Shown one piece after another: positions 335 through 41,062 of a stretch of DNA of 55,899 nucleotides. The stretch comes from Anaerolineae bacterium (GTDB lineage: Bacteria; Chloroflexota; Anaerolineae; 4572-78). A program made the position numbers and the translations under genes. Each line of letters starts with the position of its first letter. The stretch's first letter is position 1. Under the pieces are notes generated by a model. That model did no database searches. It saw only the letters and a list, made by a program, of their open reading frames with translations, and was not told the DNA's origin. Location of the stretch: positions 1 to 55,899 of the forward strand of contig JAOZQT010000013.1 in assembly GCA_029932075.1 (NCBI GenBank), read 5' to 3'.

Positions 335-382
335 CCCCCACCCCTAACCCCTCTCCCTGTGGGGGAGGGGTTAGGGGTGGGG
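335..382. repeat. GC-rich palindromic element (family C), copy C1, ~48 bp, imperfect inverted repeat
   Basis: Sequence is CCCCACCCCTAACCCCTCTCCC-TGT-GGGGGAGGGGTTAGGGGTGGGG, with 22-bp arms. It lies directly 3' of the upstream gene. It has G-quadruplex potential (GGGGG/GGGG/GGGG/GGGG tracts, TTAGGG-like). Related copies are at 9722, 25565, 31331, 35983 and 41001. Confidence 0.6.
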
Positions 383-577
383 ATGAACGCTTACGAGATG
401 GTTTAAAAACTTTTCTTGTTTTAGTTTAAATCAAGCTATTTATTAGCGAGCGGGTTCTTAGTCAGTTTCACCTATGACGGCGGCAGACGATGCCAGCTGG
501 TACAAACCCGTATAAAGAACAAGTGGTTACATTTTTTGAAACGGCTTTTATACAGAAGACAAGCATAATACAACTGC

Positions 578-606
578 TTGACTCTCACAGTGGTGCATGG
601 TAAAAT
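578..606 (+). promoter_or_regulatory. Putative sigma70-type promoter for the ProX-like gene
   Basis: TTGACT (578-583), then a 17-nt spacer, then TGgTAAAAT (598-606) as an extended -10. It sits ~45 nt upstream of ATG 654. Confidence 0.35.
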
Positions 607-653
607 AAGTTGTTAATTTATTATCATATAAAAAGGATATTTGTAGAAAACTT

Positions 654-1601
654 ATGATGTTACGTGTTTATTTAATAGTAGTTATGATTTTAGTTATGAC
701 CAGTTGTACTAATACAGAATCGCCCTCAGTTGAACAGGAGAAGCCAGTGATAAAATTGGCACAACGCGATTGGCTTGGTTTTGAATTGGACAACATGCTT
801 GCTAAGATAATCTTGGAAGAAGAAATGGGCTATACTGTCGAAATTATAGATATTGAGGCAGACCAACAATTTGAAATACTCGTTCAAGGTGAAGCCCATG
901 CTGTTTTGGAGATTTGGCCTATTACTTGGCTGAATGATATTGAGCGGTACATGGAAGTTGAAAAAACTGTTGAGCATGGCGGAAATTTGGGAGTCTTAGG
1001 TAAAATAGGTTGGTTCATGCCTAAGTATATGGTAGAGAAACATCCCGAACTTGCCACTTGGGAAGGCTTTAAAGACCCTGAATTGGCTCGATTGTTTAGC
1101 ACTCCTAGTACTGGTGATAAGGGACAATTTTTGACAGGATCCCCCGATTGGCTGGACGCGGCAGGAGATATTATTTCTAATTTAGATTTGCCTCTTCAGG
1201 TAGAATTTGCTGGTTCAGAAGAAGTTCTAGTAGAATCTATAATTACCGCTTATGAGAAAGAAGAGCCTATTCTATTTTATTTTTGGACTCCACATTATCT
1301 TTTTGCTAAATTTAGTTTAACTCCAGTTAAACTCCCACCATATAGCGATGAATGTTATGCTAAATTTGACACGGGCGGAGTAGATTGTGAATATCCCACC
1401 GATGCTCTCTTAAAAGCATTGTGGCCCGGTCTGAAAGATTATGCTCCTGATGCTTATGGTTTTTTGAAAAATTTTGGCTTTACTAATGAAGACCAAATAT
1501 CCATGATGGCTTCGGTTGAAATGGAAGGAAAAACCGTAGAACAATCCGTTCGTATCTGGATGGAGCAAAATGAAGTTACATGGCAAGCATGGATCCCGTA
1601 A
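654..1601 (+). CDS. Glycine betaine/proline-type ABC transporter substrate-binding lipoprotein (ProX/OpuAC family)
   Basis: Signal peptide with lipobox (LVMTSC). Colinear similarity to E. coli ProX, e.g. EPILFYFWTPHYLFAKF versus KPVFYYTWTPYWVSNEL. AAAGGA RBS upstream. Confidence 0.7.
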   Translation: MMLRVYLIVVMILVMTSCTNTESPSVEQEKPVIKLAQRDWLGFELDNMLAKIILEEEMGYTVEIIDIEADQQFEILVQGEAHAVLEIWPITWLNDIERYMEVEKTVEHGGNLGVLGKIGWFMPKYMVEKHPELATWEGFKDPELARLFSTPSTGDKGQFLTGSPDWLDAAGDIISNLDLPLQVEFAGSEEVLVESIITAYEKEEPILFYFWTPHYLFAKFSLTPVKLPPYSDECYAKFDTGGVDCEYPTDALLKALWPGLKDYAPDAYGFLKNFGFTNEDQISMMASVEMEGKTVEQSVRIWMEQNEVTWQAWIP

Positions 1602-1608
1602 ATATTAT

Positions 1609-1636
1609 GGAGCGTCAAAGCAAGCTTTGATGCTCC
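1609..1636. terminator. 28-bp palindrome (short family-A variant), putative terminator hairpin 8 bp after the ProX stop
   Basis: GGAGCGTCAAAGCAAGCTTTGATGCTCC has a ~12-bp stem and a 4-nt loop. It is not followed by a clear U-run. Confidence 0.4.
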
Positions 1637-1701
1637 GTAATCCAAGTTAATTCATTTTTCTTCCCTACAGTATTTCTCCATTCAAATGTAGTGTATATTT
1701 A

Positions 1702-38441: not shown

Positions 38442-38443
38442 GC

Positions 38444-39433
38444 CTACATTTTTTTCATACTACATAATCGTGTTATCAGCATGTCTAATGCCATTGTCTC
38501 CTCCATTTGCCCTGTTTTAATCGCTTTGTCTGTTTCAAGTAAAATCGAAAAAACATCTACTAATTGCTTGGTGCTAAACTTTTTCCCTTCTCGTAGCCGT
38601 ATCTGCACAGGGTAATCACTTCGCCAGCCTTTTGCTTGAGCGATTTGAGGTGGGGTCATGCCGCTTTCAGCCATGCTTTTTATTTCGAGCAGGCTACGAA
38701 ATTGGCTGGTAATGCTACCTAATATTGCTAGGGTATGCTGTCCTTCATTCAGGTGTTTATGATATTGGTCTAATGCCTTTTCAATGTTTTGTCGTCCGAT
38801 TGCGTTTGCCATAGCAAATGCTTCGGAATCAACAGTATAAGGACATAAATATTCAACATCGGCTAAACGAATTGGACGTTTATTTTTAACATACAAAATA
38901 AGTTTTTCCAATTCGTTATCTAACATCCGCAAATTTTCACCAACAACATTTGCTAGTGCCATCGCGGCTGGCATGTCAATTTTGCCCTCCTTTTGCTGAA
39001 CACGTTTTTCTATCCATGGCACAAGTTCTCTCTTCGTCGGTTCAGGAAAAGCGTGGACACAATCAGATATTTTCAATCCTTTTTTGAGAATTGAGTGGTT
39101 TTTTCTCAGAGTAACATTCTCAATGAAAACAAGCGTGGTGCTATCAGGGAGGTTGTCCAATAATTTTGCCAAATCAGTGATGACTTCGGCACGATTTTTC
39201 TTCTTGGCTCCGCCACTGATTTGGCTCAAGTAGTTCTGAACAATTACCAGCCGATTTGAGATGAGAAAGGGCATAGCATGAACATGATGAGTAAGTTCAG
39301 CTATAGTAAGGTTTTTCCCTTCCAATTCAGTAGTATTAAGGGAAAGCATATCTGAATTACCTAGACGACTTTTTAAGTCGGCAAGCATTTCTTTGGCTGT
39401 AAATTCATTGGGCCCATGAAAAATATGATACAT
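38444..39433 (-). CDS. holA: DNA polymerase III subunit delta (HolA)
   Basis: N-terminal MYHIFHGPNEF (compare the canonical MIYLFYGEDTF start), and a delta-subunit helical C-terminal domain. The track start 39538 would run through the family-D palindrome and is rejected. Confidence 0.8.
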   Translation of the reverse strand: MYHIFHGPNEFTAKEMLADLKSRLGNSDMLSLNTTELEGKNLTIAELTHHVHAMPFLISNRLVIVQNYLSQISGGAKKKNRAEVITDLAKLLDNLPDSTTLVFIENVTLRKNHSILKKGLKISDCVHAFPEPTKRELVPWIEKRVQQKEGKIDMPAAMALANVVGENLRMLDNELEKLILYVKNKRPIRLADVEYLCPYTVDSEAFAMANAIGRQNIEKALDQYHKHLNEGQHTLAILGSITSQFRSLLEIKSMAESGMTPPQIAQAKGWRSDYPVQIRLREGKKFSTKQLVDVFSILLETDKAIKTGQMEETMALDMLITRLCSMKKM

Positions 39434-39469
39434 GTTTACCTGTAGACTTTTTTTATACCTACAGTCTAA

Positions 39470-39502
39470 GACAAGAAAGGTTTTAAAAACCTTTCTTGTC
39501 TG
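39470..39502. repeat. Family-D AT-rich perfect palindrome, copy D5, upstream of holA
   Basis: AGACAAGAAAGGTTTTAAAAACCTTTCTTGTCT. Confidence 0.55.
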
Positions 39503-39513
39503 TCCATTGTCTT

Positions 39514-40821
39514 TTATAAGCGTCGACTGATTTTCCATTTACCTTCATGAAAAACCACCTCTAGGTTGATAATTTCTGTTGTTGTAACTTCGGCATCACC
39601 CTTATTTTGCTTAATCACTGCCTGTAATTTAACTCGACTGGAAAGTGGGGTTGAGCCTGCATAAGAAACAGCTACATCTGTTTTCTCCACATCAGGAAAA
39701 TATTCCAGTTTGGTAACAGATACATTAAATGGTAATGTATCACTTGGCAAGCCAAAGTAGGAAAATTTATTATTATTATATTCTGTTCCTGCTTGACTAT
39801 CAGGAGCAAAAAAATCAAGCATGTTCTCATTAGCATCAACTAATGCTGTATTTTCCCCCAACGTTTTATAAAATCCCAAAACCAGTTTTTCAGGAAATTC
39901 TGTTTGGAAGATGTTCACAAGAGGGTCTTCTAAAGCAAAATCAATATAAGATTTCACGGGAGCAGCCAATGAAGCCGCTCCTATATCTGCCATAAAGGTG
40001 GCATTAACACCTTCACCATGAAGGTCATACACATTTTTCACTGCCAGCTGAGCCCGTTCATATGCTCCCCTGTCAGAAACTGTAACTTGTTTGGTATCAG
40101 GATTGTATGATACCCCACCACTTCCTTCAAAAGAACCAATCACTTGATAACGTGGGGGGTCATCTCGTGGCGGTTGCCAAGGGCTTGTATTTTGTTGGAA
40201 GCTAAAAATGGTCAATTGATTTTTCACTCCATTCAATTGACCGTAAATAAGGAGCTCGGGAATACCATCTTGTACGATTACACCTGTTTCGGCATCGCAG
40301 TCACTTGTTTCGCATTTAGCAAGATTAGGAATAATATCTTGTTTGTCATCAACGATGACATGTCCTTCACCTAAGAAATCTCTGTCAGGAGCGTCAAGTG
40401 AATAAGGGAAAATAATAGGTAGCGGTTTGCCACGGTCATTATCATAAATCACCGCCAAACGTGGGGAACTTCCTGGACAAGGGTCGTTTAGGCTTTTCCT
40501 TTCAGAAATGTCACTGAATTCATCAGATACTCTAACCGAATCAACCTGATAAACGACCAGCCATTCTTGGTCTTCCGTATTATTATCTGTGTTAAGTTGT
40601 TGTGCTGAGCAGATTTTCCTCCCATCTTCAGGAATAAAATCAGTCAATTTACCTGACCAGACAAGCCAACCTGTTTCCACAAGTGGACTCATGTCAATTC
40701 TACACAGAAGTACTGAAAACACCAACATAAAACCAATAACAACGAGCAATCCAATCGCATTAACAATTGCTCCTGTAATATATTTTATAAACTGAGAACC
40801 AATTTCTGTTAATCCAGACAC
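39514..40821 (-). CDS. Hypothetical membrane-anchored protein (single N-terminal TM helix, large extracytoplasmic domain)
   Basis: GTG start at 40821 preceded by AAGGTG. No recognisable domain. Confidence 0.45.
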   Translation of the reverse strand: MSGLTEIGSQFIKYITGAIVNAIGLLVVIGFMLVFSVLLCRIDMSPLVETGWLVWSGKLTDFIPEDGRKICSAQQLNTDNNTEDQEWLVVYQVDSVRVSDEFSDISERKSLNDPCPGSSPRLAVIYDNDRGKPLPIIFPYSLDAPDRDFLGEGHVIVDDKQDIIPNLAKCETSDCDAETGVIVQDGIPELLIYGQLNGVKNQLTIFSFQQNTSPWQPPRDDPPRYQVIGSFEGSGGVSYNPDTKQVTVSDRGAYERAQLAVKNVYDLHGEGVNATFMADIGAASLAAPVKSYIDFALEDPLVNIFQTEFPEKLVLGFYKTLGENTALVDANENMLDFFAPDSQAGTEYNNNKFSYFGLPSDTLPFNVSVTKLEYFPDVEKTDVAVSYAGSTPLSSRVKLQAVIKQNKGDAEVTTTEIINLEVVFHEGKWKISRRL

Positions 40822-41000
40822 TATCTTTCACCTTTGTATGTTAAAAATATTATGTAAATTAAATTCATGTTATCACTGATTTTTTATTATGTCAACTTAA
40901 GAAAAAAAAATGGATATTATATTTTGACGATTTTTCAATCTGTTGAAACCGATTTCTGTTTCCAGAATGAGGTTTGAATCTCACGCCCGTTAGTACTACA

Positions 41001-41062
41001 ACCCCCCATCCCATTCCCATGCGAGGAGAATCCCCCTCCACATAGGGAAGGGGTTAGGGATA
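41001..41062. repeat. Family-C GC-rich element, copy C6, 3' of the gene ending at 41087
   Basis: ACCCCCCATCCCATTCCCATGCGAGGAGAATCCCCCTCCACATAGGGAAGGGGTTAGGGATAG. Confidence 0.5.

Follow-up and report, generated by a model that had tools for sequence, protein, structure and literature searches.

One intergenic repeat of E. coli has been described under several names: BoxC, the potential intrastrand triplex (PIT) elements of Hoyne and Maher (2000, 2002), the TMECO triplex motifs of Holder et al. (2015, PMC4666352) and the HPG1/HPG2 G-quadruplex-hairpin motifs of Kaplan et al. (2016, PMC5100583). The published TMECO pattern is CCCTCNCCC-N3-6-GGGNGAGGG-N3-GGGNGAGGG (PMC4666352). By NMR the isolated E. 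coli strand forms a triplex and not a G-quadruplex (G4), with its complement it forms a B-DNA duplex, no protection appeared in DMS footprinting in vivo and the triplex went undetected there, and PIT elements had neither promoter nor terminator activity in E. coli (PMC4666352). Kaplan et al. viewed the sequence (GGGAGAGGGTTAGGGTGAGGG), which has a conserved C-rich 5' flank and lies between genes (six convergent regions and one divergent), as a conserved 'G-quadruplex-hairpin-duplex switch' with CD support and proposed a terminator or regulatory role (PMC5100583). Recurrent PQS with an adjacent C-rich track in Methanomicrobiaceae are likewise intergenic, near gene ends or starts, and can fold as a G4, as a GC hairpin or as an antiparallel triplex; annealing in K+ moves the hairpin or triplex to the G4 (PMC8044849). 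REP/BIME sequences and the GTAG REPs with their REP-associated tyrosine transposase (RAYT) are short GC-rich extragenic palindromes that occur in mosaics (PMC3733652, PMC2817692).

The window analysed here is 55,899 nucleotides of DNA from an uncultured Anaerolineae bacterium of the Guaymas Basin. An earlier note had listed six GC-rich palindromic stretches in it (e1 to e6, Table 1). All six are present where the note placed them; in each a C-rich arm on the 5' side precedes a G-rich one on the 3' side, and they are the main GC peaks in a window of 40% GC. They are likely to belong to a known, BoxC-like kind of bacterial intergenic repeat, most of them as decayed copies, and the window probably contains a single intact copy (e1) along with several that are decaying, set in mosaics of other short palindromic modules. 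Both the kind and the quadruplex idea are already in print, and the host here is an uncultured Anaerolineae bacterium. The literature that supports the BoxC-class reading is PMC4666352, PMC5100583, PMC2267715 and PMC8044849.

Table 1. Repeat copies and remnants in the window, with their positions and distinguishing features.
Feature	Positions	Strand	Remarks
e1, intact element	329-388		covariance model 63.4 bits (+), 62.4 bits (-), E ~1e-14; tag AGTAGAC 329-335; outer C block 335-344; TAA 345-347; inner C block 348-357; loop TGT 358-360; inner G block 361-370; TTA 371-373; outer G block 374-382; tail ATGAAC 383-388
e2, probable look-alike in coding sequence	9722-9755	+	model E 0.2; lowest triplex-scan match, L = 7; within CDS 8096-12172
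G-arm-only remnant	10333-10359	+	TTTAGGGGGCAGGGGTGATGGTCAAAC; in length-variable linker of YfhO-flippase CDS; by eye only
Tagged half element	16600-16618	+	AGTAGAC-CCCACCCCTAGGG; starts inside stop TAG (16599-16601) of gene 15006-16601
Candidate right end of composite begun at 16600	16837-16852	+	CCCTGGTAGGGTGAAC; imperfect inverted partner of 16600-16632; by eye only
e3, degenerate palindromic copy	25565-25617		TAA and TTA spacers retained; model 32 bits, E 1e-6
e4, long rearranged copy	31326-31430	+	model only E 2-4.5; tag AGTAGAC 31326-31332, outer C block, extra internal hairpins, several G blocks, tail GGTGAAC 31424-31430
e5, short copy, C-G-G blocks	35975-36018	+	model 20 bits, E 3e-3
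e6, decayed copy	41001-41069		model E 1.6-4; near minus-strand gene 41087-41722
Short variant	45538-45569	+	CCCTAATTGTAGGGGAGTGGTGATGGTGAAAC; both flanks common to e3

The intact element, CCCCCACCCC-TAA-CCCCTCTCCC-TGT-GGGGGAGGGG-TTA-GGGGTGGGG, folds into a hairpin of 22 bp (z = -7.4 against shuffles). Repeats of this class combine two symmetries: the whole is inverted around a loop of 3-5 nt, the 5' arm consisting of pyrimidines without G and the 3' arm of purines, and each arm is also a mirror repeat around the TAA or TTA spacer. The block order of e1 is that of BoxC, PIT and TMECO: a C block, a loop of 3-6 nt, a G block, a 3-nt spacer (TTA in type A) and a G block. The architecture of e1 fits the TMECO pattern, down to the TGT loop and a second loop TTA of type A, and E. 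coli copies that were read directly have the same layout; e1's TGT loop is also found among them, and, as in BoxC, a second C block makes some copies full palindromes. Further points in common with BoxC are that the repeats are intergenic and multi-copy, have no associated gene, are described by one covariance model and carry a purine-motif triplex code in the G blocks. The model also matches the palindromic E. coli BoxC (41.8 bits, E 5e-9). Unlike BoxC, the runs here are G4 and C4 and not the G3 and C3 of E. coli, and for this reason the literal E. coli regex is not matched; by BLAST the identity to E. coli copies is only 77-81% (E 0.1-2). Divergence among the copies is also much greater here than in the near-identical E. 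coli set, three have the AGTAGAC tag, and the host belongs to the Chloroflexota, the TMECO counts being from Proteobacteria. Arms of low complexity, C/T and G/A, could become alike by convergence, so the likeness to BoxC need not mean shared ancestry. The methanogen repeats are unrelated in sequence, occur in archaeal hosts and have the C track 3' of the G tracts, the reverse arm order.

The analysis shows the match to the class in sequence and structure, the occurrence of the class across many phyla, the covariation of its stems, the polarity of its arms, their mirror symmetry and a bias to gene 3' ends. More than ten phyla contain the exact core pattern, at a minimum of 119 loci. Among the 108 related elements on which the covariance model was trained, all from genomes of other bacteria, 90.6% of cells are paired and 397 double-sided changes were counted, compared with 157 in shuffles. 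C-G is far above G-C at every variable pair of the cross-phylum stems and the 5' arm is nearly free of G, while other hairpins at the same loci start with the pyrimidine arm in 30 cases and with the purine arm in 9. When the outer G block is compared with the reversed inner G block, the triplex code holds at 81% of free positions, against 54% when permuted (2000 permutations, maximum 62%). The mirror arrangement fits 87% of positions and the direct arrangement 53%; the two G blocks are thus mirror images, as a purine-motif triplex needs. Many of the cross-phylum matches are from Nostoc and relatives. For cyanobacteria, Elhai et al. in 2008 (cited in PMC3733652) reportedly described small dispersed repeats, with very short hairpin repeats nested in common flanks, and Holder et al. 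in 2015 are said to have found G/C-rich triplex motifs. The cyanobacterial repeats, being very short hairpins in common flanks, are likened to the present ones by description and not sequence by sequence.

The six stretches had been put forward as one family, which stands for e1 (335-382, 63 bits, E 8e-15), e3 (25565-25616) and e5 (35975-36015); these are significant under the covariance model and are clear members. The other three are not significant (Table 1), e4 and e6 being marginal members and e2 a doubtful one. The count of model-significant copies, three of the six listed, speaks against the class reading. The degenerate e3 matches e1 by BLAST with 87.5% identity over 40 nt (E 3.6e-4), is followed by GGTGAAC and differs from a sister contig by a single SNP at 25588. 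The short copy e5 reads CCTCCCTT-TG-AAGGGAGG-G-GTTGGGAA and the core of e6 reads CCCCCTCC-ACATA-GGGAAGGGG-TTA-GGGATAG, then GTGAAAC. In public annotation a 79-aa ORF is called across e4. The stretch e2 encodes the peptide NPSPSKRRGWGGVW of a YfhO and flippase fusion. That it is an inserted repeat copy was considered and rejected: the peptide aligns to a homologue loop of about the same length with no net insertion, and e2 is probably a look-alike. Remnants beyond the six were also seen (Table 1). The half element is joined to another repeat module, and the identical junction is present in a related contig (L155); the flank of e3 (25526-25569) matches 45498-45542 at 95.6%. No copy was found in 54 kb of close relatives (UvrC ~70% identical), which also speaks against the class reading.

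The position of the copies had been described as immediately downstream of stop codons, often between convergent genes. Four of the intergenic copies do lie close behind a stop, e1 at 44 nt (of a 99-aa ORF), e3 at 20 nt, e4 at 9 nt (of uvrC) and e6 at 25 nt, and e5 does not, lying 163 nt past a stop and 20 nt ahead of the next start codon; within the window only e3 is between convergent genes. A REP-like palindromic family at gene 3' ends is nevertheless broadly borne out, as the repeats are intergenic, structured and in mosaics of short repeats, and e2 inside a CDS is the exception. Across phyla, convergent regions are enriched and divergent regions depleted: the loci of the exact core pattern number 25 convergent, 7 divergent and 45 tandem, where intergenic length would predict about 10, 20 and 47 (p = 1.6e-7). 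This 3'-end bias differs from E. coli K-12, where the motif is more often upstream than downstream of ORFs and has no strand bias (PMC4666352). For all five copies whose gene context has a single direction, the sense RNA has the more stable fold, for example e4 (-45.6 kcal/mol with 6 G-U pairs on the plus strand, -34.2 on the minus) and e6 (-34.3 kcal/mol on the minus, sense strand, -26.9 on the plus). G-T pairs occur in REP/BIME as well, suggesting transcription. The bias in sense-strand stability is absent from the cross-phylum set (23 vs 19) and could alternatively come from transcription-linked C-to-T mutation.

It is hardly credible that the six sequences are unrelated chance patches rich in G or C. 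The coding nature of e2 and the non-significant model scores of e4 and e6 fit such a reading, but it is already contradicted for e1, e3 and e5: the z score of e1 and the model E values, down to 1e-14, oppose it, and a class II intrastrand-triplex scan found four motifs (e1 on both strands, e2, and e5 with L = 8) against 0.01 per shuffled window. Five of the six copies, moreover, are intergenic when only ~9% of the window is, and this is therefore not chance. Ordinary gene-specific terminators or 3' stabilising hairpins could have evolved in place, the likeness being convergence of strong G/C hairpins with purine-free and pyrimidine-free arms. The four copies 9-44 nt past stops, the convergent enrichment and the sense-strand G-U pairs in five of five directional copies are in keeping with this, and as canonical terminators are not enriched in the window another signal might serve. 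Mirror symmetry of the G blocks, however, is unnecessary for a hairpin, the copies have unpaired flanks in common (AGTAGAC 5' and GTGAAC(G) 3'), and some genomes contain several copies with common flanks. A terminator is also opposed by the missing T tails, none being present on any copy in the window and none of the copies being flagged as a terminator, and by the inactivity of the E. coli PIT elements (PMC4666352). We regard independent origin of this sort as quite unlikely.

Strict REP elements, that is palindromes with a GTAG tag which a RAYT from another part of the genome moves on single-stranded DNA, are an unlikely explanation too. AGTAGAC, which places GTAG at one end of three copies, immediately precedes the C arm in e1, in e4, in the half element at 16600 and in contig L155; the exact TAGTAGAC occurs only twice in the window and abuts a C arm both times. 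The tails (GTGAAC) all point in the same direction on the G-skewed strand, the copies are in BIME-like clusters with other palindromes, and GTAG-tagged REPs have been reported from Chloroflexi (PMC3733652). However, the REP system is defined by its RAYT gene, and no RAYT or other Y1 transposase gene was seen in the window or a 5.5 kb extension. The 22-bp stems far exceed the 6-13 bp of GTAG REPs, which are not segregated into purine and pyrimidine arms, and the tag is on only 3 of ~9 copies. The cross-phylum set has no conserved tag, with CTAC or GAAC flanks only at chance level, and no gene family is common to the surroundings of the 119 loci.

The earlier note had also proposed a quadruplex role, and the repeats could be dedicated G-quadruplex/i-motif switches in which the G4 of the G arm, on DNA or RNA, is the selected function, for example in termination or as a replication barrier. 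The G arm of e1, GGGGG-A-GGGG-TTA-GGGG-T-GGGG, is a very strong G4 motif (e1 has regex matches on both strands), G4Hunter, the check that had been suggested, gives scores up to 2.8, and for single-stranded DNA of e1, e4 and e5 the ViennaRNA G4 model prefers a G4 to the hairpin. For the E. coli sequences the switch idea, backed by CD, is already in print (PMC5100583), in essentially the form of the earlier hypothesis, and K+ annealing yields G4 in the methanogen repeats (PMC8044849); the supposition that G4 involvement is unusual for bacterial repeats thus does not hold. Four consecutive G tracts, however, are present only in e1, e4 and e5 (three-layer in the last) and in none of the remnants, e3 has no G4 of at least three layers and e6 has none, and therefore G4 competence is not conserved. 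The HPG study dealt with three-layer G4s in E. coli only, with conservation that falls with distance from E. coli, whereas e1 is four-layer and half the copies are without G4 competence. Over the 108 elements it is arm complementarity and mirror symmetry that are conserved and not the number of G tracts. The division into a G strand and a C strand applies only to the extra G blocks of e4 and e5; elsewhere the palindromic form of the elements gives both strands a C arm as well as a G arm. The neighbouring complementary C arm competes with any quadruplex, and since the C arm comes first the hairpin is favoured in RNA (predicted -52.6 kcal/mol against -40.8 for the G4). With the triplex, duplex and footprinting results from E. 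coli (PMC4666352) also against it, G4 as the selected function is very unlikely. The G4s in only three of the six copies, the favoured RNA hairpin, the NMR, DMS and promoter or terminator activity results from E. coli and the missing T tails leave roles in termination, mRNA protection or G4 formation as conjectures for these copies.

Under the preferred reading of BoxC-like repeats, the elements may spread or persist as structure-prone non-coding DNA and may survive where they are least harmful, downstream of genes and outside promoters. A transcribed repeat would give a very stable 3' UTR hairpin. Because it has no U tail, this hairpin could serve as a barrier or stabiliser at most and would not be a canonical terminator. 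In single-stranded DNA, during replication or repair or in transcription bubbles, the repeat may fold into a hairpin or a purine-motif intrastrand triplex, or into a G4 for e1, e4 and e5. Each of these folds might hold up polymerases and favour deletions and rearrangements nearby, as has been reported from E. coli.

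The six G-rich stretches described in the earlier note, e1 to e6 (Table), are all present and stand out as the chief local GC maxima in a window with a GC content of 40%. The observation of six G-quadruplex-forming palindromes at gene 3' ends is genuine, though it claims too much: the six comprise three good copies (e1, e3 and e5), two decayed copies (e4 and e6) and one coding look-alike (e2). All six share a layout in which a C-rich arm is followed by a short loop and a G-rich arm, and only e1 is intact, the others being imperfect. The e1 sequence is CCCCCACCCC-TAA-CCCCTCTCCC-TGT-GGGGGAGGGG-TTA-GGGGTGGGG, with a 22 bp hairpin (z = -7.4 relative to dinucleotide shuffles), and a self-BLAST of the window found it to be 87.5% identical to e3 over 40 nt. 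Because the element reads alike on both strands, C arm first, the description of one strand as G-rich and the other as C-rich applies to the surplus G blocks of e4 and e5 but not elsewhere.

According to public gene calls on overlapping contigs, approximately 9% of the window is intergenic. Five of the six elements are intergenic and the exception, e2, is judged not to be a member of the family. The peptide encoded by e2 occupies a loop of about equal length in all ten aligned homologues, therefore e2 is not an inserted copy. The same alignment rules out that e2 is a repeat inserted in frame, like the RPE elements of Rickettsia. The product of the surrounding ORF has a YfhO-like glycosyltransferase domain fused to a Wzx/MOP flippase domain, and this PF09586 + PF01943 fusion is present in other Anaerolineae proteins. 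The 79-aa ORF called across e4 in public annotation has no Pfam hit and is probably a spurious call in which the repeat is read as coding sequence. Three proteins of the window match 'MAG: Anaerolineaceae bacterium 4572_78' exactly, and the UvrC homologues with 62-70% identity all come from Anaerolineae or other Chloroflexota. A gammaproteobacterial or Beggiatoa origin was rejected, the proteins being of Anaerolineae type. A position directly after stop codons, often between convergent genes, had been proposed for the intergenic copies. This holds for e1, e3, e4 and e6, at 9-44 nt, but e5 is more distant and only e3 lies between convergent genes.

Table. Coordinates of the G-rich elements and of other features in the window
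Feature	Position	Setting or remark
e1	335-382	44 nt 3' of a stop
e2	9722-9755	within CDS of YfhO + flippase fusion gene
e3	25565-25617	20 nt 3' of a stop; convergent genes on either side
e4	31326-31430	9 nt 3' of uvrC stop
e5	35975-36018	163 nt 3' of a stop; 20 nt 5' of next start
e6	41001-41069	25 nt 3' of a stop
YfhO-flippase fusion ORF	8096-12172	1358 aa
79-aa ORF	31293-31532	L123 (contig of the same population) 5841-6080, minus strand
(G)TGAAC(G) after G arm	383-389, 16846-16853, 25615-25621, 31424-31430	
AT-rich palindromes AGACAAGAAAGGTTTT-AAAACCTTTCTTGTCT	3945-3977, 10356-10389, 20017-20049, 22866-22899, 39469-39501	up to 16+16 nt; perfect in one copy
Palindromic module TGGAGCGTCAAAGCTTGCTTTGACATGAAAAAGCAAGCTTTTTCGCTCCA	4076-4124, 25450-25493, 45447-45496	also L155 (contig of a related organism) 1503-1553
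Module TGGAGCGTCAAAGCTTGCTTTGACATGAAAAAGCAAGCTTTTTCGCTCCA, partial copies	1614-1636, 12200-12222, 52609-52638	
137-bp repeat	12229-12365, 50161-50297	97% identical
tRNA-Leu(taa)	50497-50582	~200 nt downstream of second 137-bp repeat
Flank module AAATATCCCAAGCCATGTTTTTTATTTAGCATTAAACAGCCC	25526-25569, 45498-45542	also 16615-16637 (reverse strand)
C-arm-first hairpin CCGCTCCCCCATCTCTAACTAGTTGTAGGGGCGG	25391-25425	right after SDR gene stop (25389)
Segments missing from L124 (contig of the same population)	16609-16750, 18513-18612, 19207-19304	142, 100 and 98 bp
Canonical G4 motif GGGAGGTCGGGTTGGGTATGGGG	55088-55110 (+)	in minus-strand ORF 54938-55852

The closest described counterpart of these elements is an E. 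coli intergenic repeat known under several names. BoxC is a 56-bp family of about 32 copies (PMC2267715). It has been treated as a G/C-rich intrastrand triplex motif, TMECO, by Holder et al. (2015, PMC4666352); Hoyne and Maher had earlier given the same sequence the name PIT element. TMECO follows the pattern CCCTCNCCC-N3-6-GGGNGAGGG-N3-GGGNGAGGG, in which the second loop is either TTA, in type A copies, or CCG, in type B. The 23 copies of MG1655 are all intergenic, the count for 262 genomes of Proteobacteria is 3610, and cyanobacteria were reported to contain many G/C-rich motifs (PMC4666352). One E. coli copy, CCCTCACCCCAACCCTCTCCC-TGT-GGGAGAGGGTTGGGGTGAGGG, has the same layout as e1 but with three-base runs. 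Since the runs of e1 consist of four Gs, its spacer is offset. The inner hairpin CCCTCTCCC-TGT-GGGGGAGGG is present but the second G block, GGGGTGGGG, differs at 2 positions, and e1 does not match the literal TMECO consensus with one mismatch allowed. A BLAST search of 5426 E. coli genomes with e1 found BoxC sites in 3268 of them, at 77-81% identity and weak E values of 0.1-2. The covariance model R1, built from 108 distinct copies of a cross-phylum set, gave 63 bits for e1, 32 for e3 and 20 for e5, with e2, e4 and e6 at E >0.2. Palindromic E. coli BoxC scored 41.8 bits (E 5e-9) with this model, and non-palindromic E. coli copies reached E 0.01-0.1 at best. Apart from e2, the window elements are also intergenic, present in multiple copies and without a linked mobile-element gene, as characterizes the BoxC class. 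The literal E. coli consensus is missed while architecture and profile match, therefore membership is assigned by the latter two. The window elements are BoxC/PIT-type in this sense, a likeness of architecture and profile that makes no claim of common descent.

The cross-phylum set was obtained by searching for the exact pattern CCCCTAACCCCT-N4-30-AGGGGTTAGGGG, with each prokaryotic species represented by one genome, which gave at least 119 loci. Their hosts include Cyanobacteria, Bacteroidota, Chloroflexota, Alpha-, Beta- and Gammaproteobacteria, Planctomycetota, Nitrospirota, Patescibacteria, Firmicutes and Actinobacteria. Among the matches listed, the core pattern is found in more than 10 phyla at locus GC contents of 27-71%, and several genomes contribute two or three loci each. 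The consensus of the 108 distinct copies is approximately e1 itself. In these copies 90.6% of the stem cells are paired, slid registers giving 64% at most, and double-sided changes number 397 vs 157 in shuffles. Where pairs vary, C-G is about 50 times as frequent as G-C, so that hardly any G is left in the 5' arm. Of the other hairpins in these loci, 30 begin with the pyrimidine arm and 9 with the purine arm. The outer G block was also compared with the reversed inner G block under a purine-motif code (G with G, A with A or T). In the 108 elements the code holds at 81% of the positions not fixed by the search pattern, compared with a permutation null of 54% (maximum 62% in 2000 permutations), a test that is inflated by sequence relatedness. 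When each of the 76 distinct types is counted once, the values are 76.5% vs 53.7%. The rule holds separately in subfamilies of different phyla, and the G blocks fit a mirror arrangement at 87% of positions vs 53% for a direct repeat.

The proposed bias toward gene 3' ends was borne out in the cross-phylum census. Crude gene calls place 25 of the matches listed in convergent, 7 in divergent and 45 in tandem regions, where the intergenic lengths of the same loci predict about 10, 20 and 47 (p = 1.6e-7). The class is thus approximately 2.5-fold enriched in convergent regions and 3-fold depleted in divergent ones. Clustering of the neighbour proteins of 119 loci, in search of a linked transposase, yielded generic families only, with none specifically shared. 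Among 2.9 million viral contigs the element pattern and its arm-swapped control each matched once, which is too few to compare.

The G-quadruplex had been put forward as an unusual feature of these repeats. For the E. coli repeat it has already been published, as Kaplan et al. (2016, PMC5100583) described the same E. coli sequences, HPG1 and HPG2, as conserved G4 motifs with a C-rich 5' flank. They named them a 'G-quadruplex-hairpin-duplex switch', suggested a terminator role and located them between genes, in six convergent regions and one divergent region. Methanogens have a comparable repeat with G4, hairpin and triplex forms (PMC8044849). The HPG1/2 motif (four G tracts of three or more, loops of 1-7 nt and a C-rich tract ~3 nt upstream) is found in e1, e4 and e5 but is lacking in e2, e3 and e6, half of the copies. 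ViennaRNA with its quadruplex term, which gives rough energies, favours the hairpin for e1 as RNA (-52.6 vs -40.8 kcal/mol for the G4) and prefers the G4 for e1, e4 and e5 as single-stranded DNA. In single-stranded DNA, e1, e4 and e5 may form G-quadruplexes. G4 ability is not the conserved feature of the elements, nor is it new. By NMR the isolated TMECO strand is a triplex and not a G4, and with its complement it is a duplex; in vivo DMS showed no protection (PMC4666352). The published criteria for a class II intrastrand triplex (a C stem, a Watson-Crick G stem and an antiparallel second G/A/T block, with stems of 7-15 nt and loops of 1-6 nt) were re-implemented. They select both strands of e1 (L = 10), e5 (L = 8) and e2 (L = 7), with 0.01 matches per shuffled window; e3, e4 and e6 are not selected. 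The canonical G4 motif near the end of the window is unrelated to the palindromes.

Other roles suggested for the elements involve termination, a REP-like identity or a structured transcript. The element tails are ATGAAC or GTGAAC, and a canonical intrinsic (Rho-independent) terminator is ruled out because T tails are absent. The window has 39 terminator-like sites, and none of them is one of e1-e6. In E. coli the motif showed neither promoter nor terminator activity in earlier studies, and it has been linked with local genomic instability (PMC4666352). The REP-like reading is reasonable. In a REP/RAYT system, most copies end on one side in a conserved tetranucleotide, GTAG (or CGTC), and the same palindromes flank a RAYT (Y1 HUH transposase) gene. 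The C arms of e1, e4 and a half element at 16600 are immediately preceded by the tag AGTAGAC. The tag was not found at e3, e5 and e6 or in the cross-phylum set, and the 61 kb examined contain no RAYT gene. For a role as RNA, the sense fold is the more stable, through G-U pairs, in all five elements with a one-directional gene context (e1, e2, e4, e5 and e6), including e6, which lies among minus-strand genes. The cross-phylum set has no such bias. The bias fits selection on a transcribed hairpin and transcription-linked C-to-T mutation equally well. The only Rfam family at the gathering threshold in the window is the tRNA, and e1 has only sub-threshold matches to generic hairpins (miRNA precursors). 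The best-supported description is that of a BoxC/PIT-type structure-prone repeat persisting downstream of genes.

The window elements are interspersed with further short palindromes, modules that turn up in varied combinations and are also found in L155. Exact TAGTAGAC occurs twice in the window, both times at sites with AGTAGAC and a C arm. The tagged 18-mer had 44 matches in metagenomes, nearly all by chance, L155 being the only one from a related organism. Most window copies end 3' in GTGAAC or a near variant, and in four BoxC copies of type A from E. coli the G arm is followed by GAACAG or TGAACG. Because it is common to the E. coli type A copies, GTGAAC was considered as a universal flank; this was ruled out by its chance-level frequency in the cross-phylum set. 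Copies of the module TGGAGCGTCAAAGCTTGCTTTGACATGAAAAAGCAAGCTTTTTCGCTCCA are in some cases 98-100% identical and often adjoin G-rich elements in mosaic clusters. The flank module AAATATCCCAAGCCATGTTTTTTATTTAGCATTAAACAGCCC is followed by e3 at one site and by a far shorter CCCTAATTGTAGGG hairpin at the other, and such constant flanks with a changed inner hairpin are reminiscent of cyanobacterial small dispersed repeats. The AT-rich palindromes are distinct from the G-rich elements, and one copy lies in frame within the YfhO-flippase CDS, where the linker length varies among homologues. The hairpin of the 137-bp repeat, AAACCCCTAC...GTAGGGGTTT, is a weak hit of the BoxC-type model (E 9e-4 and 0.27), which does not detect the small hairpin CCGCTCCCCCATCTCTAACTAGTTGTAGGGGCGG.

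Three contigs of the same population, L123, L127 and L128, are of the same strain (99.8% identical). The JGI contig L124 lacks three segments. The 100- and 98-bp segments are within genes and neither is a multiple of three. These gaps look like real deletion alleles or assembly jumps and not clean excisions. Such hairpins were not found in 54 kb of relatives with UvrC ~70% identical, which are non-syntenic, and no plasmid matched a 4-kb portion of the window.

For annotation, the G-rich palindromes can be read as a described repeat class, with one of the six being coding sequence. BoxC/PIT-type elements are now placed in Chloroflexota and many other phyla. Strict arm polarity, compensatory stems, the mirror relation and the context bias are comparative evidence that was not found in the papers on the motif cited here. 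It is conceivable, if rather unlikely, that BoxC-type elements are one pan-bacterial class whose doubly symmetric design (a G-free 5' arm, compensatory stems and a second G block mirrored according to the purine-motif triplex code) is maintained because selection favours a fold of the DNA itself, either an intrastrand triplex or a switch between hairpin, triplex and G4, and not a plain hairpin. The class would then have, at gene 3' ends, a role or a way of being copied that is conserved. If so, four-G runs would make the Anaerolineae copies the variant with the strongest tendency to form quadruplexes. If the comparative evidence survives phylogenetic correction, it would bear on whether these motifs are selected for a non-B DNA fold.
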